Shown here piece after piece: positions 51,309 to 55,414 of a stretch of DNA of 64,000 nt. The notes under the pieces are model-generated. The model made no database searches and had not been told where the DNA came from. It saw only the letters and a program-made list of their open reading frames with translations. The position numbers and the translations under genes were made by a program. This DNA is from an uncultured Phycisphaerales bacterium (GTDB lineage: Bacteria; Planctomycetota; Phycisphaerae; Tepidisphaerales; Tepidisphaeraceae), in assembly GCA_963758525.1 (NCBI GenBank), contig CAVWVQ010000003.1:3712001-3776000 (forward strand). The letters run 5' to 3'. How positions within the stretch are numbered: position 1 is the first letter of the stretch; each line of letters starts with the position of its first letter.

Positions 51309-51466
51309 CCCTCTCCCGGTACGCCGGGAGAGGGCTGGGGTGAGGGTGATTTGGAGAGCGAGAGGTCTCTGTTTGATGGGAAGAGCGATCATCGCCCGAG
51401 ACGAGAGTCCTTTCACGTTCGAAATCACCCTCACCCCAACCCTCTCCCGGAGTACCGGGAGAGGGG
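51309..51466. repeat. REP doublet CCCTCACCCC..CCCTCTCCCGG(AGTA)CCGGGAGAGGG
   Basis: Inverted pair; further copies at 40788-40817 and inside the helicase at 48294-48324. Confidence 0.88.
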
Positions 51467-51659
51467 GCAGGACGCGGCGTTGGTCGTGCATCGGTGCAGG
51501 CGTCGGCCCTCAACAGAAACCGGAGAGTTCTATATGTAGGGCGGGATTCATCCCGCCGCTTCTTTTGTCTACGGCAAAATCGTGGCGGGATGAATCCCGC
51601 CCTACATTCGAGAATGTTCTTCACGCAAAGATTTTCTTCTTGATTTTATAATTTTTCAT

Positions 51660-51685
51660 GCAACAATTCAGGTCTAATCGGCGTT
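51660..51685 (+). promoter_or_regulatory. Candidate ECF-sigma promoter of the tRNA array
   Basis: GCAAC-N17-CGTT at the end of an AT-rich stretch (51630-51660). Confidence 0.45.
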
Positions 51686-51703
51686 ATGTCGATGGAGAGA
51701 CCT

Positions 51704-51787
51704 ATGCGGCACTTGAGTTCATCTAAGTTTAACGGTTGCCAACCAGAGCGACTCGCATCAAACCGAGCCGAACTGGTCAACTTATAA
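51704..51787 (+). CDS. Putative 27-aa leader peptide MRHLSSSKFNGCQPERLASNRAELVNL
   Basis: GGAGAG RBS; rich in A/T-ending codons; stop codon overlaps the first of several alternative hairpins. Confidence 0.5.
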   Translation: MRHLSSSKFNGCQPERLASNRAELVNL

Positions 51788-51856
51788 CTCCTCGCCGCCG
51801 CCGGCCGGGAGTTCTTCCCGGTCGAAAGTAATATTTCATAGAACCGGGAAGCAATT

Positions 51857-51945
51857 GGGCGTTCAGCTCATTTTGCTGGAACACCTCTCTTACAAAGAGG
51901 AGGTCCGTGATTTGAGCGGCCGTTGGCCCGGGAATCTCGCGGTTC
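51857..51945 (+). pseudogene. tRNA-Val(TAC)-like sequence with disrupted T arm and 3' end
   Basis: GGGCGTT, D arm, and CCTCT-CTTACAA-AGAGG anticodon arm intact; no TTCRA loop or complementary acceptor strand. Confidence 0.6.
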
Positions 51946-52010
51946 CGAGGCGTATTGCGCGGCCAGGTGATTGTATTCACTATGGACGCATTACAAAGGC
52001 AGCGGTCCGC

Positions 52011-52081
52011 GCACTCGTAGCTCAATGCAGAGTCGCCGGCTCTTAACCGGTCGGGTGCAGGTTCAAATCCTGCCGGGTGCA
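52011..52081 (+). tRNA. tRNA-Lys(CTT)
   Basis: GCACTCG/CGGGTGC acceptor, GCCGG-CTCTTAA-CCGGT, TTCAAAT loop; no CCA. Confidence 0.88.
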
Positions 52082-52102
52082 TGAATTGAGAAACTATGGA
52101 AC

Positions 52103-52176
52103 GGTTCAGTAGCCCAACTGGCAGAGGCGCCTGACTCAGAATCAGGATGGTGCAGGTTCGAATCCTGCCTGGACCA
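52103..52176 (+). tRNA. tRNA-Leu(CAG) with short variable loop
   Basis: CCTGA-CTCAGAA-TCAGG, 5-nt variable region, A73. Confidence 0.85.
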
Positions 52177-52190
52177 TGAAGCGGTACAAC

Positions 52191-52263
52191 GTCGCGGCAG
52201 CTCGATTGGACGAGCACGGCCCTCCGAAGGCCATGGCTGAAGGTTCGAATCCTTCCCGTGACA
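52191..52263 (+). tRNA. tRNA-Arg(CCG)
   Basis: GTCGCGG/CCGTGAC acceptor, loop CTCCGAA, GAAGG-TTCGAAT-CCTTC. Confidence 0.88.
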
Positions 52264-52277
52264 TGGAAAAGAACATT

Positions 52278-52349
52278 GGGCCCGTCGTCCAACGGTAAGA
52301 CTCCTGGCCTGCAACCAGGAAATGAGGGTTCAACTCCCTCCGGGGTCCA
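52278..52349 (+). tRNA. tRNA-Ala(TGC), atypical (C33; one extra G in the 3' acceptor strand)
   Basis: CCTGG-CCTGCAA-CCAGG; G3:U70 and A73 if one G is bulged. Confidence 0.7.
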
Positions 52350-52352
52350 TGA

Positions 52353-52428
52353 GTGACATGCGGCATTGTTCTCCTGCGGCGGTCTCAAGAACCGCGCAGG
52401 TGTGGGTTCGACTCCCACCCGTGGCACT
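52353..52428 (+). ncRNA. tRNA-like RNA lacking a D arm, with extended anticodon arm (loop CTCAAGA)
   Basis: Perfect T arm GTGGG-TTCGACT-CCCAC; CCTGC(G)GCGGT/ACCGC-GCAGG stem; imperfect GTGACATG/CGTGGCAC closing stem. Confidence 0.65.
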
Positions 52429-52442
52429 GAAAGGAGTTTATC

Positions 52443-52757
52443 ATGTTCGTAAACAACTCGGCCAGACCACACAAGGAGACCATGTATCTGATGTGTCAGC
52501 TCTCCAAGCCGGTGGAGGGGGGCGTTGCCCGGATGACGTCCTGGATCCGCCAGGCCGTCGCCAAACCCGGGGCGGTGTTGGGCCGTTTGGAAGACACAGA
52601 GACGGGTGTCTTCGAGACAGGTTGGCAAGTTGACTCAGCCAGTGGACCCGCTCTCCCGGAGTCGCTTTTGTTAAAGCGGTCTCACAAGAAGGTGTTCGCA
52701 TCCATCAAAGACGAAGAGGCGGCTCGAGAACATGTACGTCAAAGCAAGAATCGCTAA
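52443..52757 (+). CDS. Hypothetical 104-aa protein embedded in the tRNA array
   Basis: Strong AAGGAG RBS; pattern C-x-L...TSWI...A-x-x-G...GW-x-V. Confidence 0.75.
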   Translation: MFVNNSARPHKETMYLMCQLSKPVEGGVARMTSWIRQAVAKPGAVLGRLEDTETGVFETGWQVDSASGPALPESLLLKRSHKKVFASIKDEEAAREHVRQSKNR

Positions 52758-52839
52758 ATCACATTGATCAGGCGGTTGCACCAGAGCGACGTGGATCAGG
52801 AGCGTCGGCAACGATGGAGGGTTTGTCATGTGATCTCCT

Positions 52840-52922
52840 GGAGGGTTGGCCGAATGGTATGGCACCCGTCTCGAAAACGGGCAAACCGAAAGGTGATGGG
52901 GGTTCGAATCCCTCACCCTCCT
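52840..52922 (+). tRNA. tRNA-Ser(CGA)
   Basis: GGAGGGT/ACCCTCC acceptor, CCCGT-CTCGAAA-ACGGG, long variable arm. Confidence 0.92.
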
Positions 52923-52968
52923 CTGACTCGGTGGTCGAGCAGGAACGGTCGAGCACTGGAAAAGATCC

Positions 52969-53053
52969 GGAGGGTTGGCGGAGCGGTCTATCGCGTCGCG
53001 TTGCTAGCGCGAAAAGCACTCGTGCTTCGAAGGTTCGAATCCTTCACCCTCCT
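52969..53053 (+). tRNA. tRNA-Ser(GCT)
   Basis: GGAGGGT/ACCCTCC acceptor, TCGCG-TTGCTAG-CGCGA, variable arm AAGCAC/GTGCTT. Confidence 0.92.
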
Positions 53054-53130
53054 TTTAGGGTTCAGGGTGTCAGGGTTCAGGGTTCAGTGAGGCGTTGTTG
53101 CCGCTGGTGCCCAACCTGACGCCAGGAGTC

Positions 53131-53142
53131 GTTCTTTGACAA
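53131..53142 (+). promoter_or_regulatory. boxA-like antitermination element
   Basis: GTTCTTTGACAA resembles rrn boxA (GCTCTTTAACAA). Confidence 0.6.
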
Positions 53143-53283
53143 TTCGATGCATCAAATGCAGGTGCGGAATTGCAAATTGAGGACTGCAAATTGCAAATTG
53201 CAAATTGTGGGGATGGGGAGGCTCCACGAATTTGCGATGGGCTTGAGCGTCGGCAGCACGCAATACTGCTCTCCGCAGCACTT

Positions 53284-53355
53284 GTGGACTTAGCTCAGCG
53301 GTAGAGCGGAGGCTTGAAGAGCCTCGCGTCCCTGGTTCAATCCCAGGAGTCCACA
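53284..53355 (+). tRNA. tRNA-Phe(GAA)
   Basis: GTGGACT/AGTCCAC acceptor, GAGGC-TTGAAGA-GCCTC. Confidence 0.92.
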
Positions 53356-53364
53356 TTCGGAGGT

Positions 53365-53480
53365 TTAGGGTTCCGGGAGGGTTCAGGGTTCAGGGTTCAG
53401 GGTGTCAGGGTGGAGGAACGGAAAATGTCTTTTTGCTGAACCCTGAACCCTGAACCCTGAACCCTAAATCCTGAACCCTA
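53365..53480. repeat. Inverted blocks of the heptamer GGGTTCA/TGAACCC
   Basis: Tandem heptamers; same unit at 10848-10875, 32624-32655 and 53057-53087. Confidence 0.9.
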
Positions 53481-53484
53481 AGAA

Positions 53485-53556
53485 GCAGTGATAACTCAGT
53501 CGGCAGAGTGCCGGTCTTCCAAACCGGAGACGTGGGTTCGATTCCCCCTCACTGCA
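53485..53556 (+). tRNA. tRNA-Gly(TCC)
   Basis: GCAGTGA/TCACTGC acceptor, CCGGT-CTTCCAA-ACCGG; one T-stem mismatch; A73. Confidence 0.88.
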
Positions 53557-53638
53557 ATGCGCGGCGCACAATCGCCGCTATTAGCGGGTGTCCGAAGGGC
53601 ACCGTCACGCGAGCAAGTGCATGCGGACATGCACGCTT

Positions 53639-53709
53639 CTGGGGATAGTTCAACGGCAGAACGTCCGGATGTGGCCCGGAATGCGGAGGTTCAACTCCTT
53701 CTCCCCGGA
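53639..53709 (+). tRNA. tRNA-His(GTG) without genomic G-1/C73
   Basis: CTGGGGA/TCCCCGG acceptor, TCCGG-ATGTGGC-CCGGA; T at -1 and A at 73. Confidence 0.82.
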
Positions 53710-53728
53710 CTGATTCCAAACGTGAGAC

Positions 53729-53801
53729 TCAGGGATAGTTCAATTGGCAGAACGTCCGACTCTGACTCGGAAAGTTGAAGGTTCGAGTCCTTCTCCCTGG
53801 G
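53729..53801 (+). tRNA. tRNA-Gln(CTG)
   Basis: TCAGGGA/TCCCTGG acceptor, TCCGA-CTCTGAC-TCGGA. Confidence 0.9.
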
Positions 53802-53802
53802 C

Positions 53803-53874
53803 TGAGTCGTAGTTCAACTGGTAGCAATGCCGGTCTTTGAAGCCGGAGATCGTGGTTCAAATCCACGCGGCTCA
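53803..53874 (+). tRNA. tRNA-Gln(TTG)
   Basis: TGAGTCG/CGGCTCA acceptor, CCGGT-CTTTGAA-GCCGG. Confidence 0.88.
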
Positions 53875-53950
53875 ATCCGCGCCGGCGCGAGAAGGCAGCG
53901 GAGAAGAAATGGAACAAGAGGAAAGGTGGTTCATCGGATCCCGCGTCCAT

Positions 53951-54023
53951 ACCCATGTAGCTCAACTGGTAGAGTGCGCGACTGTTAATCGCGTCGTTGG
54001 TGGTTCGAATCCACCCGTGGGTG
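53951..54023 (+). tRNA. tRNA-Asn(GTT)
   Basis: ACCCATG/CGTGGGT acceptor, CGCGA-CTGTTAA-TCGCG, G73. Confidence 0.92.
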
Positions 54024-54147
54024 CTGGCTTCGCCAGAGCAGGTGAACCGTTGAACGGGCGAACAGGAGACGGAAAAAACTTGGCCTCGTCTCCTGATCCG
54101 CTGCTCACCTTTCTCCTGTTCTCGTTCGCGATGCATCGCGCAGCGCC

Positions 54148-54220
54148 GCTCCCGTCGTCCAACGGACAGGATGCCCGGCCTTCAACCGGATGATGATGGG
54201 TTCGATTCCCTCCGGGAGCA
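54148..54220 (+). tRNA. tRNA-Glu(TTC), atypical (C33; bulge in T stem)
   Basis: GCTCCCG/CGGGAGC acceptor, loop CCTTCAA, TTCGATT loop. Confidence 0.78.
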
Positions 54221-54317
54221 TTACTCTTTGTGGCGCAGGCTTCGAGCCTGCTCCGCTCGGCAGGCTGGAAGCCTGCACCACAAAATAGGAAGGGTGATCG
54301 GGCGCCTGATTGTTGTT

Positions 54318-54391
54318 CAGCGTGTGGCGCAGTTTGGCAGCGCACGTGCCTCGGGCGCACGGGGTCGAAGGTTCGAATCCTTCCACGCTGA
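54318..54391 (+). tRNA. tRNA-Pro(CGG)
   Basis: CAGCGTG/CACGCTG acceptor, CGTGC-CTCGGGC-GCACG, A73. Confidence 0.93.
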
Positions 54392-54403
54392 TTGAAACAG
54401 ATT

Positions 54404-54477
54404 GAGGAGGTGGCCGAGCGGTTCAAGGCCTGGGCCTGCAAAGCCCGTGTTCGCTGGTTCGAATCCAGTCCTCCTTT
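54404..54477 (+). tRNA. tRNA-Cys(GCA)
   Basis: GAGGAGG/CCTCCTT acceptor, TGGGC-CTGCAAA-GCCCG, U73. Confidence 0.9.
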
Positions 54478-54952: not shown

Positions 54953-55414
54953 TCACCACCAGTAATTGAACATCAGCTCGCGCGACCATGCGGGCTGCGT
55001 CACCGCGCCTCTGGGCAAAAACTCCTCCATCACCGGCTTGATGTCCACCACCGGCGACCCGTCGATCGCGTCGAGTCCCGCGACTGTCAGCGTTTTTCCC
55101 TTGAGGCTCACGACCCGCGCTACGCAGGTTCCCAGTCGATTTGGCCGGTCTTTACCGCGCTGCACAAAGATGCCCACCCGCGGCCATTGTTCGTTACCGC
55201 GCGGGTGCCGGGCGCCACGCACGATGTCGCTCTCGTCGACGCGGTGAAAATGATAGATGACTTCAACGTGCGAAAAAGCCTCGATGCCGTCCAGCGCTTC
55301 GTCGCCGAACGCGTCTGACAGCTCGATCTTCGACACGACATCGCCCCAGAGATCGTCGCTCAAGTCCGTCCGTGTGCTGCTGACGTAGCCAATCGGCTCG
55401 ACTGCGATCATCAT
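54953..55414 (-). CDS. TsaA/TrmO (YaeB)-like SAM-binding tRNA methyltransferase domain
   Basis: PIGYV, FSHV, GIF...RPNRLG, GLDAIDGSPVVDIKP. Confidence 0.88.
   Translation of the reverse strand: MMIAVEPIGYVSSTRTDLSDDLWGDVVSKIELSDAFGDEALDGIEAFSHVEVIYHFHRVDESDIVRGARHPRGNEQWPRVGIFVQRGKDRPNRLGTCVARVVSLKGKTLTVAGLDAIDGSPVVDIKPVMEEFLPRGAVTQPAWSRELMFNYWW

Follow-up and report, generated by a model that had tools for sequence, protein, structure and literature searches.

The window analysed here, a stretch of 64,000 nt from an uncultured Phycisphaerales bacterium, contains a conserved leader-peptide switch placed before a block of spare tRNA genes. In the reading that we prefer, and to which we assign a probability of roughly 0.6, stalling of a ribosome within the leader would likely lead to read-through into the tRNA genes, and a ribosome that reaches the leader stop codon would likely bring about termination. 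A promoter-like site and a ribosome site come first in the unit; a leader about 29 codons long follows, then four pairing segments whose distance from the stop codon is fixed, and finally a redundant tRNA array.

The first-pass annotation had described three mutually exclusive hairpins directly after the stop codon of a leader ORF. Re-reading of the + strand confirmed all six pairing segments in sequence and position: AACTCC (51786–91) with GGAGTT (51808–13) for helix 1:2, GGCCGGGA (51803–10) with TCCCGGTC (51816–23) for 2:3, and CTTCCCGGT (51814–22) with ACCGGGAAG (51843–51) for 3:4. The C-rich region 1 (51786–51797) overlaps the leader TAA (51785–87) and pairs with region 2; a ribosome standing on the stop codon would cover region 1. 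Region 2 (51802–51813), whose GGCC begins 15 nt past the stop, can pair with region 1 or with region 3 (51814–51824); the latter has either region 2 (a 9-bp hairpin, the proposed OFF state) or region 4 (51843–51851) as its partner. Region 4 repeats the CCGGGA core of region 2 and is not followed by a U-tract. The G-poor, A/U-rich spacer between regions 3 and 4 (51825–51842) is unpaired in the 2:3 state and otherwise lies inside the 3:4 hairpin.

The predicted energies of the single helices are −15.2 (1:2), −17.4 (2:3) and −15.8 kcal/mol (3:4). The minimum-energy fold of positions 51780–51860 combines 1:2 with 3:4 (−31.3 kcal/mol, z −3.0; 1/200 shuffles was equally good). A chain of three exclusive helices of at least 6 bp occurred in 7–40 of 1000 dinucleotide shuffles (the range depending on the energy cut-off) and in 24–54 of 1000 random windows of the genome. 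The chain in a single copy is thus modest evidence, but its conservation, with two more copies in the genome and model matches in 50 out of 141 family genomes, indicates that the hairpins form a real element. Among curated Rfam models (including T-box and other cis-regulators), tRNAs alone reached the gathering score in the window, and a search of 51550–52500 at E values up to 5 gave no relevant match apart from tRNA.

A search of the genome with the element revealed three strong copies. Copy 2 precedes tRNA genes for Thr, Tyr and Trp, and copy 3 those for Ile, Arg, Arg, Lys, Asp and Met together with the only RtcB gene of the genome. Across the family, a covariance model gave matches at 66 places; removal of three false matches and one weak match that was not fetched, and addition of locus L070, resulted in a final set of 63 units in 49 genomes, nearly all from one planctomycete family. 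Loci L188, L190 and L191 (no proper element) and five reverse-strand self-matches were left out of the counts. tRNA genes are present behind 56 units, and none was called behind the other seven. In a 151-genome sample of the class, matches outside this family were weak only (E 3e-5 or worse); two of them were examined and had neither leader nor tRNA. In four tRNA clusters of other families, taken from a 301-genome sample of the phylum, the switch motif was absent upstream wherever the sequence was readable.

The exact 19-mer used as the first search seed is present in 41/63 units. When a genome collection was scanned with it, 33 of 80 loci were real units (regions 1 and 4 present), and 32 of these 33 are titled Tepidisphaeraceae, Tepidisphaerales or Phycisphaerales. 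The remaining loci, including L123 (which passed the filter and has no leader context), were treated as chance matches, and the eight matches in viral contigs all stem from a single unrelated hairpin, which has a U-tract and lacks regions 1 and 4. From metagenomes, 80 of 112 matches were retrieved, of which 68 were new, with tRNA genes behind 48/54.

Other leader platforms were also observed before tRNA blocks, at L212/L008 (G026), L043 (G021), and L044 and L211 (other family). At L212, in the same family, a Leu-rich leader is followed by an ordinary U-tract terminator and then by two tRNA-Leu genes. Further platforms are a leader rich in S, R and L that stands before a Ser/Arg/Leu/His/Asp/Tyr/Cys block, and a switch of another kind, also free of a U-tract. 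L211 is one of the four other-family clusters mentioned above, and its leader switch differs from the present one.

Pairing is retained across the 63 units in 98% of cells for 1:2+3:4 and in 95% for 2:3. Of the check proposed in the annotation, conservation and covariation in homologues, the first part came out strongly but the second weakly: two-sided changes affect 0/8 pairs of 2:3 and 3/16 pairs of 1:2+3:4, mostly one terminal pair. The distance from the stop codon to the GGCC of region 2 is 12–18 nt in 61/63 units (15 nt in 31), and that from region 3 to region 4 is 20–35 nt in 62/63. Region 4 is found in all 63 genome units and in 60/67 metagenome units. Over the 63 units, the spacer contains 11% G and 69% A+T, and region 1 58% C.

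Upstream of the leader, on the + strand, a −35-like hexamer TTGATT (51640–51645) and a −10-like hexamer AACAAT (51662–51667; 36 nt 5′ of the leader start, and retained in the close metagenome relative L227) constitute a putative promoter. A strict sigma-70 promoter scan found no site. The 63 leaders share, in their upstream DNA, a conserved TTG.. / ..GGAATAAT profile, whose −10 ends 36–39 nt before the start codon in 44/63. A 5′ hairpin with the Shine-Dalgarno sequence GGAG (51694–97) occupies 51670–51703 (+; −12.4 kcal/mol); such a hairpin folds below −3 kcal/mol in 61/63 units, and a Shine-Dalgarno-like match is present in 57/63.

The putative leader ORF (51704–51787, +; 27 codons, MRHLSSSKFNGCQPERLASNRAELVNL) was identified by an ORF call, its match to the array and frame-keeping indels; translation might alternatively begin at one of the in-frame ATGs at 51686 and 51692. 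A short leader ORF is predicted in 63/63 genome units (modal length 29 codons) and in 60/60 metagenome units with sufficient upstream DNA. In two loci (L164 and L189) the open leader frames are far longer (about 70 codons or more); one of them is very Ala-rich and stands before Ala/Met/Asn tRNAs. Related leaders differ by 42 non-synonymous versus 24 synonymous changes, and 5/5 indels between them are multiples of three. Since the indels keep the frame while amino-acid changes are common, frame and composition, rather than the peptide, appear to matter. All three kinds of stop codon are used among the units, and the leader ends are biased, with Arg at position −2 in 24/63.

The composition of the leader tracks the amino acids of the array locus by locus. 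The fraction of own-array amino-acid types covered by the leader is 0.967, compared to 0.858 with leaders swapped (55 units; 0/20,000). These 55 leaders form 41 sequence clusters. When each cluster was represented by a single leader and arrays had to be complete, the values were 0.970 vs 0.841 (n=32); leaving this genome out gave 0.974 vs 0.820 (n=19). Related loci are only partly independent even when clustered. Locus L164, with its uncertain start, was omitted from the matching tests, and the frame of L189 was set by hand. Held-out metagenome loci gave 0.979 vs 0.898 (n=50; 0/10,000), and the 21 metagenome leaders unlike any genome leader 0.988 vs 0.881 (2/10,000). Leaders before near-complete arrays contain 18.3 different amino acids per 30 codons, compared to 13.9 in protein windows and 13.7 in their own shifted frames.

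The 14 amino acids of the present leader are those of all 13 tRNA types in its array plus one outsider, Val (chance 1e-5 to 1e-4), and 0/62 other leaders fit this array equally. The single Val codon is accounted for by a decayed tRNA-Val(TAC), the first gene of the unit (51856–51930, +; profile match 51865–51915, E 9e-6), which starts 5 nt past region 4 and has an intact counterpart at the equivalent place in L227. A weak terminator-like site at 51856–70 falls within this decayed gene and was rejected. The three leaders of the genome each suit their own block: that of the Thr/Tyr/Trp copy has 11 T, Y or W residues in 28, and that of the present unit none. This represents a re-tuning of three leaders that followed the splitting of an array inside a single genome. 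Elsewhere, two Gln-rich leaders stand before tRNA-Gln alone. The match at the codon level is weaker (736/965 codons readable vs 720 expected; 19/5000). It is driven by Lys (AAG in 7/7 cases where tRNA-CTT alone is present) and by Arg (AGA/AGG 12/67 with tRNA-TCT, 0/50 without). Ten complete metagenome loci did not reproduce the isoacceptor match (102 observed vs 101 expected), and a codon-level comparison with pooled leader usage gave no excess (333 vs 329).

The array behind the switch consists of 15 called tRNA genes (52011–54477, +) for Lys, Leu, Arg, Ala, Ser (two), Phe, Gly, His, Gln (two), Asn, Glu, Pro and Cys. All 15 anticodons have a further copy elsewhere in the genome, and all 23 called tRNAs behind the three unit copies are redundant likewise. 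A partial tRNA-Leu(CAA) is present at 52376–52426 (+; E 1e-12 to the array-tRNA profile, below the Rfam cut-off). Homologous units contain up to 30 tRNAs in a conserved order, and arrays are seen to decay and split.

Several further features of the array were recorded. The tRNA-Leu(CAG) (52103–52176, 74 nt) is without the long variable arm that is usual for tRNA-Leu, and the tRNA-Ala(TGC) (52278–52348) has an unusual body; both are conserved across arrays. An A/U-rich motif, GGTTGTAT...(T/A)CAA (51966–51995 of the window), often forming a hairpin, occurs in about 20/63 units, mostly between tRNA-Arg(ACG) and tRNA-Lys(CTT). The array contains an ORF of 104 aa with a ribosome site (52443–52757, +) and no Pfam or NCBIfam match; a DUF4926 ORF follows its last tRNA, and a gene of a TrmO-family tRNA methyltransferase (54953–55414, −) converges on its end. 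Repeated palindromes and heptamer-like tandem repeats (GGGTTCA/TGAACCC) lie in intergenic DNA before and inside the array (51310–51470, 51540–51605, 53056–53090 and 53366–53480).

The effect of ribosome position was examined by folding of the 63 units, with the edge of the ribosome placed 6–12 nt past the A-site codon, a value assumed from general knowledge. With a ribosome at the stop codon, 2:3 was predicted in 63/63 transcripts ending before region 4. With a ribosome at least four codons upstream (edge +9), the full transcript was predicted to contain 3:4 in 60–61/63 units and 1:2 in 58–59/63. In transcripts short of region 4 and free of ribosome cover, 2:3 beats 1:2 at equilibrium in about half of the units, and in full transcripts with the ribosome at the stop codon 3:4 still wins at equilibrium in 39–43/63. 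Because 3:4 often wins at equilibrium, 2:3 would be transient, and the decision must be a kinetic one that depends on whether 1:2 is the first helix to form. The nearest codon lies at least five codons from the stop for 386/509 array amino acids (11/13 in this leader); since the sensor codons are mostly far upstream of the stop, a stall at such a codon would correspond to the 1:2+3:4 state. The annotation had likened the pairing to that of classical attenuators. A switch of the leader-peptide attenuator type is borne out, but the classical roles, with 3:4 as the stop signal, are not, the predicted folds showing the reverse, with 2:3 confined to ribosomes on the stop codon or a few codons short of it.

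In the proposed mechanism, a ribosome that reaches the stop codon would cover region 1, so that 2:3 forms; one that is stalled at least four codons upstream would leave 1:2 free to form, after which 3:4 would lock this state. If stalling turns the tRNA genes on, then 3:4 belongs to the ON state. The logic is thus likely inverted with respect to trp, with 2:3 presumably as the OFF state and 1:2+3:4 as the ON state, the reverse of the trp numbering. That a stall switches the genes on rather than off is quite probable: the controlled tRNAs are spares, some units carry ligases or EF-Tu, an Anabaena array is induced by stress, and the mgtA, corA, tufB and whiB7 leaders offer precedents. The signal would be the loss of any working tRNA in the set, through cleavage, damage or failed charging, and the spare tRNAs would likely be made only when ribosomes stall for lack of one.

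The partner genes were surveyed using 91 and 60 partly overlapping ORFs, mostly from 171 candidates, followed by tblastn of all units. RNA ligases (RtcB, DRB0094-type or RLIG1-like) were found in or just behind 4/63 genome and 3/68 metagenome units, and an intact-looking EF-Tu gene likewise in 4/63 and 3/68; most units have neither. An unnamed protein family of about 60 residues (M.RLISLF...EP.YF.QLL.YLRE) was observed in 14/63 units (L173:6760-6930(-), L185:7584-7772(-), L172:5873-6049(-) and 11 more); it has no member in this genome. It lies close behind the switch in four tRNA-less units, has 43 homologues and no Pfam domain, and is a candidate translation-stress factor. A second small unnamed protein (about 87 aa, with a basic N-terminus; L181:1243-1503(+) and a matching ORF in L182) is the product of the gene that comes first after the switch in two units devoid of tRNAs.

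The opposite polarity, in which 1:2+3:4 is OFF and 2:3, with a ribosome at the stop codon, is ON, would have the array made only while all its amino acids are decoded well, and would locally take the place of stringent control over stable RNA, RelA/SpoT being mostly absent from the lineage. We consider it unlikely. It agrees with the trp-style numbering, with the retention of region 4 in every genome unit and with a match that is mainly at the amino-acid level. No RelA_SpoT domain was found in this genome (91% complete), it is present in 12/141 genomes of the family, and no long RSH is reported for the PVC bacteria examined, one planctomycete among them, in the part of PMC3153485 consulted; this absence makes a stringent-like brake conceivable. 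However, 3:4 is without a U-tract, and it hides the C-rich and G-poor stretches instead of laying them open. It is spare tRNAs that are controlled; the housekeeping copies are without the element, the genome having just the three strong matches. The RNA ligases of some units suit damage repair, and under this polarity a lost tRNA would prevent the making of its own substitute.

The output of the preferred switch, in which a stall turns the genes on, is its least certain part. The note that no U-tract follows 3:4 holds both here and in homologues: at least 5 T in the 8 nt at the base of 3:4 were found in 2/62 genome units, and a U-tract at 3:4 in 2/60 metagenome units. Nor is 2:3 an intrinsic terminator of the ordinary sort: just 3/63 units show a U-tract at the base of this stem. 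The genome does use ordinary U-tract terminators (7/31 hairpins behind tRNA or tmRNA genes, 13/78 convergent ends). It encodes a canonical Rho (TIGR00767 above the cut-off) and NusB; a second Rho-like ORF (G000:C3:3994036-3995112(-), locus L161; 440 aa, 412 bits) scores below the cut-off.

A boxA-like antitermination motif, GTTCTTTGACAA, lies inside the array (53131–53142, +). Its core is shared with the rRNA leader of this genome and with a CRISPR leader, and is present in 14/63 units, and the motif resembles the boxA consensus given in the part of PMC13753749 consulted; such motifs suggest that the array transcripts may be Rho-sensitive. The CRISPR array concerned, G000:C3:3909960(-), bears in its leader the motif of the rRNA leader and the tRNA array.

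Since Rho is present and the array has a boxA-like site, Rho access, one of the outputs suggested in the annotation, is a fair guess, and Rho is the likeliest, though putative, effector of the OFF state. In the 1:2+3:4 state, region 1 and the spacer are sequestered by pairing or inside a hairpin; when 2:3 forms, they lie open on its two sides. Rho might then load on the freed C-rich region 1 and the G-poor spacer with the help of a pause behind 2:3, in the manner of the leaders of mgtA, corA and tufB. At a median of 36 nt and 8 YC dimers, the proposed site is short. In full-length folds the two states differ little in exposure, and just 21/61 units have more YC dimers open in the 2:3 state.

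With the same polarity, the output might be something other than Rho: 2:3 and a displaced U-rich run could serve as an intrinsic terminator or a factor-assisted pause site, or a nuclease could enter at the open spacer and degrade the precursor. This seems rather improbable. At least 5 T within an 8-nt window starting 5–14 nt behind 2:3 were found in 37/63 units, compared to 4/63 behind 3:4; the spacer is A+T-rich, 2:3 exists mainly before region 4 is made, and across units the first tRNA may begin 8–22 nt past region 4. Against this, the U-run is missing in 26/63 units, some of its U's merely pair with GAAA in the 3:4 stem, the recognisable terminators of the genome have the U-run directly at the stem, and a terminator right behind 2:3 would have no need of region 4.

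It is very improbable that the element is a vestige without working control, carried along with horizontally moved, decaying tRNA arrays. The decay and splitting of arrays, the seven units with no called tRNA and the weak covariation would suit such a view; however, leader composition is re-tuned to each sub-array after splitting, and the frame, the spacing and all four segments are kept while the leaders diverge into their 41 clusters. A tnaC-type device, in which the dwell time of the ribosome at the stop codon decides by holding 2:3 and shielding a Rho site, with composition secondary, would fit the fixed distance from the stop to region 2, the biased leader ends and the mechanism known for tnaC and speFL (PMC12360218, as seen in part), but is scarcely credible given the lack of a conserved arrest peptide, the use of all three stops, the free tolerance of amino-acid changes and a composition that tracks the array.

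Returning to the preferred reading, the units may form a self-auditing tRNA reserve, a broader picture to which we give even odds. Each spare block would have its own test message, written with the amino acids, and in part the exact codons, that the block serves, and re-spelled when the block splits; a stall at any point of that message would flip a Rho-gated switch without a U-tract and free the replacements, in some units together with ligases or EF-Tu. If so, this would be a ppGpp-independent response to translation damage in a family mostly without RelA/SpoT, and the leaders would be a readable record of the tRNA losses that each genome guards against. Each leader predicts the shortages that induce its own block, which allows sharp tests. 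The unit would also give a handle on translation stress in planctomycetes largely without RelA/SpoT, and a 76-nt switch with a re-spellable sensor would serve as a general reporter of tRNA loss.

Attenuators of amino-acid operons are classically represented by trp, his, thr and ilvGMEDA. With this type, and with the uORF attenuator of Corynebacterium ilvB (PMC11109978, consulted in part), the unit shares a promoter, a leader rich in the relevant amino acids, here enriched for those of the array and provided with a ribosome site, and mutually exclusive 1:2, 2:3 and 3:4 helices. It departs from the trp type in two defining respects, the U-tract terminator at 3:4, which is lacking, and the polarity of ribosome position in the predicted folds: the stop codon precedes region 1 instead of lying beside region 2, so that a ribosome at the stop favours 2:3. 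In addition, its targets are tRNA genes rather than biosynthetic enzymes, and its sensor codons are spread across the whole leader. Of the eight uORF candidates in PMC11109978, the two described in the consulted text are not at tRNA genes, and the main text is silent on planctomycetes. A literature search for leader or attenuator control of tRNA genes, with most subscription papers and supplements outside its scope, found none.

Judged from its sequence, the unit may operate in the manner of the uORF attenuators known from mgtA/tufB or whiB7. According to the portion of PMC12360218 consulted, the mgtA (mgtL), corA, mgtC and tufB leaders of Salmonella and E. coli are uORF-controlled Rho-dependent attenuators, and those of mgtA, corA and tufB switch on at a stall. 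Like these attenuators, the unit has a short uORF, alternative stem-loops and no intrinsic terminator, and a stall would lead to a termination-resistant fold and fast translation to a Rho-prone one; tufB is controlled in this way, and here an extra EF-Tu gene lies behind some units. Unlike them, it has non-coding tRNA arrays as its target, a sensor for as many as 20 amino acids whose composition is re-tuned to the tRNAs that follow, and a putative role of Rho; there is no sequence relation. In the mycobacterial whiB7 uORF attenuator, stalling leads to antitermination (PMC10274678, as seen in part). The near pan-amino-acid uORF, whose composition decides which shortages are sensed, is common to both systems, but whiB7 attenuation controls a transcription factor via a terminator/antiterminator, whereas in the present unit the genes under control are themselves mirrored in the leader, and a U-tract terminator is lacking.

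The genes behind the switch resemble the long supernumerary tRNA arrays (L-arrays; PMC10272220, consulted in part), being clustered and redundant with housekeeping copies. In Anabaena, the trn operon L-array and rtcB are induced by translational stress (PMC8421152, consulted in part), and there, too, rtcB and translation genes lie near a redundant tRNA array. Control of the Anabaena L-array is ascribed in that source to promoter repeats and the repressor TrcR, and the words "leader" and "attenuat" are absent from its main text. Why many bacteria retain long, apparently silent arrays of redundant tRNA genes, and what triggers them, has so far been answered for Anabaena via a repressor. The present unit would provide another answer, legible in the sequence itself, in which decoding feeds back directly on the transcription of tRNA genes.
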